From positions 1 through 15,618 of the forward strand of contig JAIPHU010000018.1 in the NCBI GenBank assembly GCA_021735045.1: a stretch of 15,618 nt of DNA, given 5' to 3'. The stretch is from Candidatus Omnitrophota bacterium (GTDB lineage: Bacteria; Omnitrophota; Gorgyraeia; Duberdicusellales; 4484-171). A model generated the notes under the pieces. The model saw only the letters and a list, made by a program, of their open reading frames with translations. It searched no databases and had not been told where the DNA came from. A program made the translations under genes and the position numbers. Shown piece by piece: positions 2,643 through 15,618 of the stretch (position 1 is its first letter; every line of letters begins with the position of its first letter).

Positions 2643-3125
2643 TTATTTTTTTAAGGTCTTCTTTAAATTAACTAAATCAGTGTAGTGCTTTTTTTCTTGC
2701 TCGATTACTTGATCAATCAATTCTTTTCTTTCTGCTTTCATGTACTCTTTAAAAGAAGTATAGACTAAAATTGACTCTTTCTCAATGCTGATACCAAAGT
2801 TAACTGCTTCCAGGTCATCTTTAAAATCTTGCCTTAGTTTTTCTTCAATTAGTTGAGGGCTAAAAATATATTCAGAAGAAATGGCCCGAATATAATTATC
2901 ATACTCACCCGGCTTGAGCTCATAAACTATATAATCACCAGCCTTGGCTAAAATTTGAGAAAATATTTTTTTGTGTTCTACTTCTTGTTCTTTTAGGTAA
3001 TCCCAAATTTTTTTAGCTTCGGGATTATCTGTTTTTTTTGATAACTTATCATAAAGTTTAGCTCCAATCTCTTCAACTTCAATCGATATCCTTAATATTT
3101 CTTGAGGGCTAAATTGATTTTCCAT
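2643..3125 (-). CDS. Ferritin-like di-iron four-helix-bundle protein (rubrerythrin/ferritin-like superfamily, no rubredoxin domain)
   Basis: Two E...ExxH pairs: EVEEIGAKLY...EQEVEH and IEKESILVY...EQEKKH. ATG at 3123-3125 is preceded by GAGG. Its stop is 1 nt from the kinase start. Confidence 0.7.
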   Translation of the reverse strand: MENQFSPQEILRISIEVEEIGAKLYDKLSKKTDNPEAKKIWDYLKEQEVEHKKIFSQILAKAGDYIVYELKPGEYDNYIRAISSEYIFSPQLIEEKLRQDFKDDLEAVNFGISIEKESILVYTSFKEYMKAERKELIDQVIEQEKKHYTDLVNLKKTLKK

Positions 3126-3151
3126 AAATACCTCTACGTCTTAAAGGTTTT

Positions 3152-3209
3152 CAGTTGCCATGTCACCAGTTTTCAGTATATTACTGGTGACATGGTGACT
3201 TGGCAACTG
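3152..3209 (-). terminator. Long imperfect GC-containing hairpin between the DpsL-like and ferritin-like genes. It could be a terminator without a U-tract or an RNA processing/stability stem.
   Basis: cagttgcca+tgtcaccagt (3152-3170) pairs with actggtgaca (3183-3192) and tggcaactg (3201-3209), leaving an 8-nt bulge. There is no U-tract on the minus strand. Confidence 0.3.
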
Positions 3210-3222
3210 GTAACTTTATGAC

Positions 3223-6093: not shown

Positions 6094-6301
6094 TTTTAAT
6101 TTCCGGTATTTTTTCTTTTAGCTTTTGCTCAATAGCAAGCTTTAAAGTATAGGTGCTCATCGGACAATGCCCGCAAGCACCAGTTAGTTTTACTTTAACA
6201 TCCCCTTTATCTGAAACTTCAACTAGTTCAACATCGCCTCCGTCAGCTTTTAGAGCCGGACGAACTTCTTCTAATACTTTTTCAACCTTTTCCGTAAGCA
6301 T
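6077..6301 (-). CDS. nfu: NifU C-terminal-domain (Nfu-type) Fe-S cluster carrier
   Basis: 74 aa with [11 protein letters not shown] and the CGHCPMS (CxxC) motif characteristic of Nfu/NifU C-terminal domains. ATG at 6299-6301 is preceded by GGAGG. Confidence 0.85.
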
Positions 6302-6312
6302 ATCTTTACCTC

Positions 6313-6386
6313 CATTAAAAATGCAATTATTTAGCGAATACCTTTATTTTTAATGGCACTTAAGCCAAATTCCTTGGCGAAGTGCC
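6313..6386 (-). repeat. Copy A of a 74-nt structured leader element (10-bp AT stem plus GC hairpin) abutting the nfu SD
   Basis: 68/74 identical to 15473-15546. cattaaaaat (6313-6322) is complementary to atttttaatg (6346-6355). The hairpin at 6355-6386 has a 7-bp outer stem, a 5-bp inner stem and a 5-nt loop. Confidence 0.85.
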
Positions 6387-6398
6387 TTTACTTTATTA

Positions 6399-6427
6399 AT
6401 TATATCTATTAAATACTATTTTAAAAC
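6399..6427 (-). promoter_or_regulatory. Weak candidate promoter upstream of element copy A
   Basis: There is a perfect TATAAT on the minus strand (reverse complement of 6399-6404), but only a poor -35 (GTTTTA/TTTTAA at 16-17 nt). TATAAT is expected by chance in DNA this AT-rich. If the promoter is active, the whole 74-nt element would be 5' UTR. Confidence 0.25.
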
Positions 6428-6462: not shown

Positions 6463-6966
6463 TTAAAACTTCTGAAATCTTTCCTTTTTGGCTTTACAAA
6501 TTGGACAAACAGCAGGAGTTTCCCCTTCCACTGTATAGCCGCAAACATCACAAATGTAAAGATTAGACAAGGTTATATCTTTAGCTTGGCTGACTTCTTC
6601 TTTTGCTTCCTTATACATTTGGGCATGTATTTTTTCTGCCTCAAGTGCATAATGAGTCGTTCTTACAGCCTCCGGCTCATTCTGTTGCTTCGCTTGATTG
6701 TAATAAGCCGGATACATCTGGTCAACTTCAAAAGTTTCTCCTTCGATGGCCACATCTAAATTATCCTTTGTATCAGAAACCTTGGCTAAAGCCTTTAGAT
6801 GATTGGTGGCATGAACTTTTTCCGCAAAAGCTATTCCCCGAAAAAGTCTTGCAATATTGGAAAAACCTTGAGCTGCGGCTTTTTCCGAAAATATTAAATA
6901 TTTCATATGCGCTTGAGATTCTCCGGCAAAAGCTTTTTCTAAGTTTTCTTCAGTCATTTTATGCAT
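6463..6966 (-). CDS. rbr: Rubrerythrin (di-iron ferritin-like domain plus C-terminal rubredoxin-like CxxC...CxxC domain)
   Basis: Motifs FAGESQAHMKY, EKVHA, EGETFE, LEAEKIHAQMY and CDVCGY...CPICKA. I start it at ATG 6964-6966 (MHKMTEEN), which has GGAGG 7 nt upstream. The track's GTG start at 7071 adds 35 non-homologous residues that run through intergenic hairpins. Confidence 0.9.
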   Translation of the reverse strand: MHKMTEENLEKAFAGESQAHMKYLIFSEKAAAQGFSNIARLFRGIAFAEKVHATNHLKALAKVSDTKDNLDVAIEGETFEVDQMYPAYYNQAKQQNEPEAVRTTHYALEAEKIHAQMYKEAKEEVSQAKDITLSNLYICDVCGYTVEGETPAVCPICKAKKERFQKF

Positions 6967-6972
6967 TTTTTT

Positions 6973-6998
6973 ACCTCCATTAAAAATGAAATTATTTA
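6973..6998 (-). repeat. 26-nt core of the leader element (SD-proximal part only) in front of rbr
   Basis: acctccattaaaaatgaaattattta is 25/26 identical to 6308-6333 in front of nfu. The GC hairpin of the full element is absent here. Confidence 0.75.
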
Positions 6999-7012
6999 AT
7001 AACCAACTATCA

Positions 7013-7028
7013 GTTCCGATCCCGGAAC
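7013..7028 (-). other. Small GC hairpin in the rbr upstream region
   Basis: gttccg (7013-7018) pairs with cggaac (7023-7028) around a 4-nt loop. It occupies the position that the larger GC hairpin holds in the nfu and EF-G-like leaders. Confidence 0.35.
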
Positions 7029-7067
7029 GACATAAAATAAGAATTGATTTTATTATCTTTTTTCTGT

Positions 7068-7082
7068 CCACCTCATAGGTGG
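7068..7082 (-). terminator. Short hairpin 7 nt after the FNR-like gene stop. It is a weak terminator candidate with no U-tract.
   Basis: ccacc-tcata-ggtgg. On the minus strand it is followed by an A-rich rather than a U-rich tract. Confidence 0.25.
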
Positions 7083-11148: not shown

Positions 11149-11224
11149 CTGCCGTGAACCAGAACAAAGTACGGTTCACGGCAGCTCTGAATCGTGATTT
11201 TGCAAAGCAAAATCTCTGGTTCAG
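11149..11224 (-). promoter_or_regulatory. GC-enriched structured element (two hairpins plus an alternative long-range pairing) between purH and folC
   Basis: A 12-bp perfect stem pairs 11149-11160 with 11173-11184. An 8-bp stem (11196-11203 with 11207-11214) is extended by ctgaa/ttcag (11187-11191 with 11220-11224). An alternative 9-bp pairing joins 11155-11163 to 11215-11223. Confidence 0.5.
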
Positions 11225-11233
11225 GGCTGTGGT

Positions 11234-15461: not shown

Positions 15462-15472
15462 AGTTACCCCCT

Positions 15473-15546
15473 CATTAAAAATGCAATTATTTAGCGAATA
15501 CCTTTATTTTTAATGACACTTAAGCCGAATTACTCGGCGTAGTGTC
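15473..15546 (-). repeat. Copy B of the 74-nt leader element, abutting the SD of the EF-G-like gene
   Basis: The first 43 nt are identical to 6313-6355. The hairpin at 15515-15546 differs from copy A at 6 positions, and 4 of those form 2 compensated base pairs. Confidence 0.85.
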
Positions 15547-15554
15547 TTATACTT

Positions 15555-15618
15555 AATGCAATTATTTAGCGAATACCTTTATTTTTAATGACACTTAAGC
15601 CGAATTACTCGGCGTAGT
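15555..15618 (-). repeat. Copy C, a tandem 75-nt-period duplicate of copy B truncated by the window edge
   Basis: 15555-15618 is 64/64 identical to 15480-15543. Confidence 0.85.

Follow-up and report, generated by a model that had tools for sequence, protein, structure and literature searches.

The window, by which we mean the whole stretch of 15,618 nucleotides (nt) that was analysed, corresponds, in reverse complement, to the beginning of contig JAIPHE010000021.1 of an Omnitrophota metagenome-assembled genome (MAG; GCA_021735365.1). The minus strand encodes nfu, a rubrerythrin gene and, towards the end of the window, a paralogue of EF-G. Directly upstream of the Shine-Dalgarno sequence (SD) of both nfu and the EF-G paralogue lies the same repeat, part of which also precedes the rubrerythrin gene. 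The repeat is a member of a family of ~75-base two-hairpin cassettes that occur before the ribosome-binding site or the tRNA start of many unrelated genes. Read 5' to 3' on the gene strand, the cassette comprises a AAGTATAAG box, a GC hairpin and, without any linker, an AU helix of 9-11 bp that closes a 23-nt A/U-rich loop and is followed by the SD or the 5' end of the tRNA. The window contains the following features:

6299-6313, minus strand: SD (GGAGG, 6309-6313) and start codon (6299-6301) of nfu, from the list of open reading frames (ORFs) and the NifU Pfam annotation
6313-6322, minus strand: 3' arm of the AU helix of the nfu copy, sense ATTTTTAATG; the SD begins with the final G of this arm
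6323-6345, minus strand: 23-nt loop or 'core' of the nfu copy, sense AAAGGTATTCGCTAAATAATTGC; contains the 18-mer discussed below
6346-6354, minus strand: 5' arm of the AU helix of the nfu copy, sense ATTAAAAAT; extendable by the final two C of the hairpin (6355-6356)
6355-6386, minus strand: GC hairpin of the nfu copy; by folding, an outer (6-7 bp) and an inner (5 bp) stem separated by an internal loop, the inner one closing a 5-nt loop
6387-6395, minus strand: left box of the nfu copy, sense AAAGTAAAG (family consensus as given above); sequence-conserved between copies
6399-6404, minus strand: putative -10 element (sense TATAAT) of what would be an older nfu promoter, ~15 nt upstream of the hairpin
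6978-6999, minus strand: partial copy before the rubrerythrin gene, sense TTAAATAATTTCATTTTTAATG followed by GAGG; end of the loop and 3' arm only
15473-15554, minus strand: SD-proximal unit before the EF-G paralogue, scoring 109 bits with a covariance model (CM) of the family; 3' arm 15473-15482, loop 15483-15505, 5' arm 15506-15514, GC hairpin 15515-15546, left box 15547-15554
15555-15618, minus strand: next tandem unit before the EF-G paralogue; the array goes on in contig JAIPHE010000015.1 (L053)

The copies in front of nfu (6313-6386) and the EF-G paralogue (15473-15546) are identical at 68/74 positions, for which the chance probability is ~1e-30 at a single offset. An earlier note on this DNA had reported this identity together with the six sites at which the copies differ (6356, 6367, 6372, 6375, 6380 and 6385), and both were reproduced exactly; a repeat search lengthened the match to 76 nt (92% identity, offset 9160). 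The 10-bp AT stem with its 23-nt loop and the GC hairpin at 6355-6386 that were described in the same note are predicted by folding on either strand, and its two compensated pairs (6356/6385 and 6367/6375) were confirmed. The identity was said to start at the SD, and in both copies the last base of the stem (G6313 and G15473, respectively) indeed directly adjoins or belongs to the SD. Absent from the earlier description is the tandem unit at 15555-15618, which is 100% identical, follows at a period of 75 nt and ends together with the window at the contig end. The 'core alone' that had been noticed before the rubrerythrin gene corresponds to the partial copy at 6978-6999; a different hairpin is found upstream of it, and the partial copy is orthologously conserved in two of the loci that we collected from other assemblies (L041 and L048; loci are numbered with an L throughout). 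The mechanical ORF of rubrerythrin (GTG at 7071; 6964-7071) is too long, the real start being the ATG at 6966 that follows GGAGG and the partial cassette; the resulting 167-aa product agrees with the annotated gene.

The earlier note had asked for further copies. Counted over at least 8 Omnitrophota assemblies, the family has 14 distinct copies that are complete and around 12 partial ones, all in the orientation of the downstream gene and locked to gene starts, unlike the scattered copies of a MITE or REP element. An 18-mer of the loop recurs exactly in 7 other Omnitrophota MAGs (~25 occurrences), a degree of conservation that is partly an ascertainment effect of the search pattern, and it occurs elsewhere only at chance rate. 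Every Omnitrophota match adjoins CCTCC and CAT, or a tRNA, on the opposite strand. The 3' arm (ATTTTYAATG), which is the most widely conserved piece of the cassette and is kept even in copies that lack the hairpin, stops at a distance of 0-1 nt from the SD or continues into the tRNA. A CM that was built from 13 aligned copies and run over the collected loci recovered 27 copies in gene sense and one degenerate inverted remnant, and none in the relatives without the element. The sole inverted occurrence (L029 45-136, minus strand; CM E=0.0017) is a degenerate remnant of the GC hairpin, located between two sense copies upstream of tRNA-Gly. A hidden Markov model of the hairpin matched only together with the core and in one orientation. 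The core pattern gave no matches in the JGI metagenome contigs, and the search of viral contigs gave none either. A pattern anchored in the arms did retrieve two matches, of which one is a true distant relative (L054) and the other probably a chance match. In this relative, at 3023-3070 of JGI contig Ga0265294_10036716, the cassette precedes a proB-like gene and has a different GC hairpin (GGCACTGAGCGG/CCGCTCAGTGTC); its loop contains the SD and its 3' arm the start codon, so that the AU helix would sequester the AUG.

The genes that follow the cassette are diverse. Next to nfu and the EF-G paralogue in the window, they include genes of proteostasis and the core machinery (dnaK in four genomes, clpC, clpP, rpoA and rpsF), genes of metabolism and the envelope (dapA, mlaD and those for an OmpA-family lipoprotein, a GT4 glycosyltransferase, a NIF3 protein and a nitroreductase) and tRNA genes, preceded by three copies (two at tRNA-Gly(CCC) and one at tRNA-Ala(GGC)). 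This is a broad housekeeping set and no redox regulon. The shared stress or redox regulon that had been suggested on the basis of the window is contradicted by dnaK, clpC, clpP, rpoA, rpsF, dapA, mlaD, the ompA-like, glycosyltransferase and nitroreductase genes and both tRNA types. The genes upstream of the cassette are nearly always co-oriented, with their stop codons 1-48 nt away, which implies that many copies are intercistronic within classical operons (grpE-dnaK, rpsD-rpoA, mlaF-mlaD and dapF-dapA). The GC hairpin begins a few nt past the upstream stop codon; in copies that lack it, the loop begins 1-10 nt past the stop or overlaps it, as in L019, where the dapF stop lies within the loop. 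Seven loci carry tandem or decayed tandem units with a common junction (...GCATT followed by AAGTATAAG...). Just upstream of the tandem arrays at two loci of the CAZSDJ genome there is a second, unrelated hairpin-forming repeat (GTCATTGCGAGGAGC...GCGACGAAGCAATC; L026 4150-4195 and, in gene orientation, L036 1625-1690).

Both helices covary. In the 13-copy alignment, 96.2% of the cells are paired as standard pairs, and 9 of the 20 pairs show changes on both sides, a number reached by none of 500 shuffles; sliding the partner columns along the alignment lowers the pairing to 30-47%. RNAalifold recovered both helices on the gene strand. Within the GC hairpin, 6/11 pairs carry double-sided changes across the family, and the pair that extends the AU helix (columns 40/86) occurs as C-G in 7 copies and as U-A in 5. 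Column 40, the penultimate base of the hairpin, covaries with its hairpin partner as well as with the base just 5' of the SD; this three-way correlation may reflect an alternative pairing or simply two subfamilies. The selection on the fold that had been proposed from the window's two copies is thereby borne out across 13-14 copies, including a compensated change (A-T to G-C) by which the EF-G orthologues of the window genome and L051 differ. Before tRNA-Gly the arms are altered (to GCTGAAAAT and ATTTTCAGC), the 5' arm having changed in such a way that the stem pairs with nucleotides 1-4 of the tRNA. Between nfu orthologues, the loop differs at 7/23 positions, the hairpin at 3/32 and the arms at 1/20.

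The pairs tally as 298 Watson-Crick and 8 wobble pairs, of which 5 are G.U when read on the gene strand and 3 when read on the opposite one. The latter all reside in one degenerate copy (L032), and L054 adds another gene-strand G.U. The resulting count of six sense against three antisense wobbles is suggestive and leans to the gene strand; the nfu copy of L048 likewise has G.U intermediates on the sense strand. With respect to translation, it had been considered that the stem could occlude the region just 5' of the SD. Occlusion of the SD itself is at most partial: the first one or two nucleotides at the 5' edge of the SD (columns 85-86) can join the stem, whereas the GGAGG core is free. The cassette thus differs from an RNA thermometer of the fourU or ROSE type, in which the SD core is paired.

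Where the cassette lies relative to a promoter can be seen best at the EF-G locus. Since the window coincides with a contig start, the tandem array coincides with a contig end, and the far side of the assembly gap was located via queA on contig JAIPHE010000015.1 of the same genome. This contig ends with, in order, queA, a canonical TTGACT-N17-TATAAT promoter (11/12), AACAGTTTACCAAG and at least three tandem units that run to the contig end, while the window provides the SD-proximal end of the array. The window's contig is not alone in this respect, as several others also end inside copies. Five related lineages, with EF-G 80-94% identical, have a matching promoter block and a short A-rich leader without the element; in a sixth, L051, one copy occupies the identical junction. 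All seven lineages, both element carriers included, share invariant promoter hexamers, and the spacer between these is variable. This invariance implies that the promoter is still under selection and that the element lies within the transcribed 5' leader of EF-G, which favours the gene-strand leader among the two strand options that the earlier note had left open. Furthermore, L051, itself filled, is nearer to the empty L041 (94%) than to the filled window (88%), and this requires at least two gain or loss events at the EF-G junction.

A similar turnover is observed at nfu. A conserved TATAAT is followed by the element in the window, L043 and L048. The element is absent from L041, where rbr and nfu are 13 nt apart, from L044, which has a different leader, and from L047, which has a short spacer; the block with the TATAAT is conserved in relatives with (L048) and without (L044) the element. 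The cassette is thus gained and lost as a block between close relatives. On the right it always reaches to the SD, which keeps its gene-specific form (e.g. GGGGG at EF-G); the left boundary is variable. Comparison of filled and empty sites makes clear that the old leader was replaced rather than interrupted. Considering this replacement and the fixed right edge, we infer that the cassette spread by recombinational copying and not by transposition.

On the basis of the above we tentatively favour, with a confidence somewhat short of even, the view that the repeat is a portable structured gene-start cassette that acts on the gene (minus) strand, in the 5' leader or the intercistronic RNA, as a form of RNA punctuation affecting stability, processing or insulation. 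The GC hairpin could then serve as a protective end-structure, located where the upstream cistron ends (3') or close to where the leader begins (5'), and the AU helix could keep the initial nucleotides of the functional RNA that follows paired in a defined duplex. This duplex would subsequently be opened or cut, for instance by an enzyme of the RNase III or RNase E type at the conserved Y-A that precedes AUUUUU. As a result, the downstream mRNA or tRNA precursor would start a few nt before the SD or the tRNA, regardless of the upstream context. What the sequence shows of such a putative processing signal is its geometry and a conserved Y-A-UUUU step.

Several observations weigh against this view. 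The nearly pure Watson-Crick pairing also fits a DNA-level palindrome or a young family, and single copies folded on the sense strand reach modest z-scores (-1.3 to -2.5). The transcription start sites at the native promoters are predicted ones. A stem that sequesters the 5' end of a tRNA is awkward for RNase P, unless it is cut or lies outside the functional transcript. Given the 7/23 differences in the nfu loop, the extreme conservation of the loop 18-mer is partly a matter of ascertainment. Finally, around 8 copies, including those at rpsF, mlaD and, in 3/4 of the genomes sampled, dnaK, lack the GC hairpin and/or the 5' arm and retain the sequence of the loop and 3' arm. This suggests a sequence-specific function (a -10 element with start site, or a cleavage site) that is not purely structural.

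The latter group of copies leads to the main rival, which we consider unlikely, if still a serious contender: the cassette could be a reusable internal promoter, with a -35 in the 5' arm (TTGAAA/TTAAAA), a -10 in the loop (AATAAT, TATAAT or TATATT) at a spacing of 16-18 nt, and a start at the conserved Y-A before ATTTTT that yields a leader of ~10 nt before the SD or tRNA; in this scheme the GC hairpin would insulate on the upstream side or terminate transcription arriving in antisense. The hairpin-less copies retain precisely the part from the -10 to the SD, the tRNA-Gly copy has a perfect TATAAT at the required position, and the 5-6 nt between CTAAAT and the Y-A are the most variable, as in a discriminator. 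An internal promoter would also serve tRNAs and mRNAs alike and would be multiplied by tandem arrays, and the reuse of promoters is documented (PMC3575422). A simple scan flags TTAAAA-16-AATAAT (9/12) in every unit, but 9/12 matches are at chance level in AT-rich DNA (4 found versus 3.5 expected), and some copies, e.g. that of L017 with AATAAA, have no hexamer with A2 and T6. Moreover, the compensatory upkeep of the GC hairpin and of the AU helix, including its pairing with tRNA nucleotides 1-4, is left unexplained, and in two lineages the canonical EF-G promoter stays intact upstream of the element. Inspection by eye for sigma-54, sigma-B/H/28 and ECF-type promoters, as well as for CIRCE, a CodY box, CsrA GGA motifs and boxA, gave no convincing fit. 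A leader cassette and an internal promoter predict the same RNA 5' end, and whether this end is a primary or a processed one is the sole difference.

The cassette could alternatively be a selfish or neutral small repeat of the MITE, REP or PATE class, i.e. a set of palindromes that matter at the DNA level, as hairpins in single-stranded DNA, are tolerated mainly in leaders and affect expression only incidentally. We regard this as rather improbable. It would agree with the presence/absence polymorphism between close relatives (at least two events at the EF-G junction), the tandem arrays and decayed partial copies, the contig breaks at copies and the almost purely Watson-Crick pairing. Yet 27 copies are strictly oriented and fixed in position at the SD or tRNA start, and copies at orthologous sites are kept across species (dnaK in 4 genomes, nfu in 4 and tRNA-Gly in 2). 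The ends of the unit (AAGTATAAG... and ...GCATT or ...TTTAATG) form no inverted repeats and the filled and empty sites reveal no target-site duplication, the old leader having been replaced instead. The cassette resembles REP/REPIN sequences in that imperfect GC palindromes are kept by compensatory change in a multicopy intergenic family, with a Y1_Tnp gene in relatives; it differs from them in having one orientation instead of inverted pairs and in its extra AU stem-loop. The Y1 transposase (RAYT-like) gene, which might seem to speak for such an origin, is flanked in L044 and L048 by another hairpin, of the GGGGACGTTTCCC type. This single gene (PF01797, RAYT/IS200-like; L044 8037-8591, also L045 and L048-L050) lies with conserved synteny in the interval between a GGDEF gene and queA of some relatives and has inverted GGGGACGTTTCCC-type hairpins on both sides and GTTATAA(C/G)T boxes in a REP/RAYT-like arrangement; L041, L043, L047, L051 and the window genome (L053) lack it.

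A more speculative and quite improbable extension of the gene-strand cassette is that it constitutes an autonomous cis-acting 'expression module', an RNA leader insulator that resets the transcript and is of a kind not yet described in bacteria. It might do so through cleavage at its 3' edge, either by itself or guided, or through a put-type, antiterminator-like modification of the elongating polymerase. If true, this would explain why the cassette is copied before mRNAs and tRNAs, why its 3' helix co-evolves with the RNA that follows, and why it is amplified in tandem below an intact promoter.

That the plus strand is the functional one, we hold to be very improbable. The GC hairpin with its T-rich tail would then be the intrinsic terminator of a short cis-antisense RNA, as the earlier note had considered, or of divergent transcripts that lead away from the gene start and back to the upstream gene. 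On this strand the hairpin is followed by TTTACTTTATT or TTATACTT, the tail TTTACTTT has 6/8 T after the GC stem, the fold z-scores are better (-3.5 and -2.8), and three mismatches of the L032 copy are G.U only on the plus strand. Against this, what lies ahead of the element on this strand are the coding starts of at least 17 different genes, and since these are unrelated, no conserved plus-strand promoter is possible. The tail is moreover conserved as a sequence, CTTATACTT, beyond mere T-richness, many copies lack the hairpin, and six G.U pairs in five other copies lie on the gene strand. There is no gene on the plus strand and the terminator scan makes no call. The proposed antisense RNA is thus left without a conserved promoter and is weakly disfavoured by the G.U pattern.

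Finally, a ligand- or stress-responsive leader (a riboswitch or thermometer) that defines a redox or stress regulon, as might be read from the copies before nfu and, partially, rubrerythrin in the window, from those before dnaK, clpC and clpP elsewhere and from an AU-rich helix beside the SD that could melt with temperature, is scarcely tenable and largely refuted by the gene list, as rpoA, rpsF, dapA, mlaD, the glycosyltransferase gene and two tRNAs are also preceded by the cassette, the loop is the fastest-evolving part in orthologues, 3/4 of the dnaK copies lack the 5' arm, the SD core is unpaired and there is no Rfam match.

Some further candidates were rejected. A sense-strand terminator is excluded by the lack of a U-tract after the GC hairpin and by the tandem position between a promoter and its gene, a 10-codon plus-strand ORF by the loss of its ATG or a stop at codon 2 in several copies, and an upstream ATG in the 3' arm by the lack of a consistent frame or SD. 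The possibility that the element is a tRNA or tmRNA was excluded by scan. A cmscan of the whole window against Rfam 15 (E<=1), the check that the earlier note had recommended, gave two chance matches elsewhere and none at 6300-6400 or 15470-15618, in line with its statement that no known family was recognised; Rfam matches in L025, L029 and L032 were to tRNAs only.

Comparable systems are known, each sharing part of these properties. The Correia/NEMIS elements of Neisseria, ERIC of enterobacteria and BOX of pneumococcus are short multicopy sequences that are co-transcribed in leaders and spacers, where their hairpins affect processing and stability; some carry promoters and their presence is polymorphic between strains. 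They insert both ways, with terminal inverted repeats and/or target duplications and without register to the SD, whereas the cassette is orientation-locked, abuts the SD and replaces the previous leader. The early RNase III signals of phage T7 (R0.3-R1.3) are repeated, structurally conserved hairpins between cistrons just upstream of each ribosome-binding site; once they are cleaved, the upstream RNA retains a protective hairpin and the downstream RNA a short leader. In comparison, the helices of the cassette are shorter (9-11 bp AU plus a 12-bp GC hairpin, end to end), and the cassette is chromosomal, varies between close relatives and also precedes tRNAs; cleavage is proposed here. Like the 5' untranslated region of E. 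coli ompA (hp1-ss1-hp2-SD), the cassette combines a 5'-end hairpin with an SD-side hairpin and is transferable between genes; the ompA leader is a single-locus element, while the cassette is a dispersed family with a putative stabilising role. A further comparison is with the putative mobile promoters (Matus-Garcia, Nijveen & van Passel 2012), highly similar non-coding blocks before non-homologous genes of one genome that are common to related taxa (PMC3575422). Like that of the cassette, the function of those blocks may be post-transcriptional; the survey covered -150..-50 and did not require structure (PMC3575422). By the sequence criterion alone (at least 80% identity over at least 50 nt before non-paralogous genes; PMC3575422), the window's pair, with 92% over 76 nt, falls within that definition. 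The cassette lies nearer to the start codon, at roughly -12..-95, ends at the SD and has two covarying helices; in addition, it occurs before tRNAs and, at EF-G, below a retained promoter. It differs from all systems compared in that it is orientation-locked, ends at the SD, co-evolves with the following RNA including tRNA, and replaces leaders blockwise.

Three other intervals of the window contain features worth recording. At 180-308, the spacer between mlaF and the mlaD-like gene contains tandem heptamer and 32-nt repeats (TTGTAAT, with TACAAAC in the other arm); in another genome (L033) the mlaF-mlaD spacer carries the leader cassette. At 3143-3218, in the interval between the ferritin-like and the rubrerythrin-like genes, there is a long near-perfect hairpin with 25-nt arms and 84% complementarity, for which Rfam gives only a chance-level match to a miRNA model (E=0.88). 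The purH-folC spacer (11150-11233) is ~100 nt long, relatively GC-rich and hairpin-forming (GTGAACCGTACTTTGTTCTGGTTCACGG), compared with 26 nt in L041; it has no Rfam match and could be another inserted repeat.

For the Omnitrophota, the practical consequence is that the repeat breaks assemblies, and that a covariation-supported motif of which Rfam holds no example could help to annotate their MAGs with respect to gene starts and operon punctuation. More generally, the swapping of whole leader cassettes before unrelated genes and tRNAs, in a streamlined and uncultivated phylum, presents a testable case of the reuse of regulatory modules. If the module defines RNA ends or insulates expression, it would be a natural counterpart of the synthetic leader insulators.

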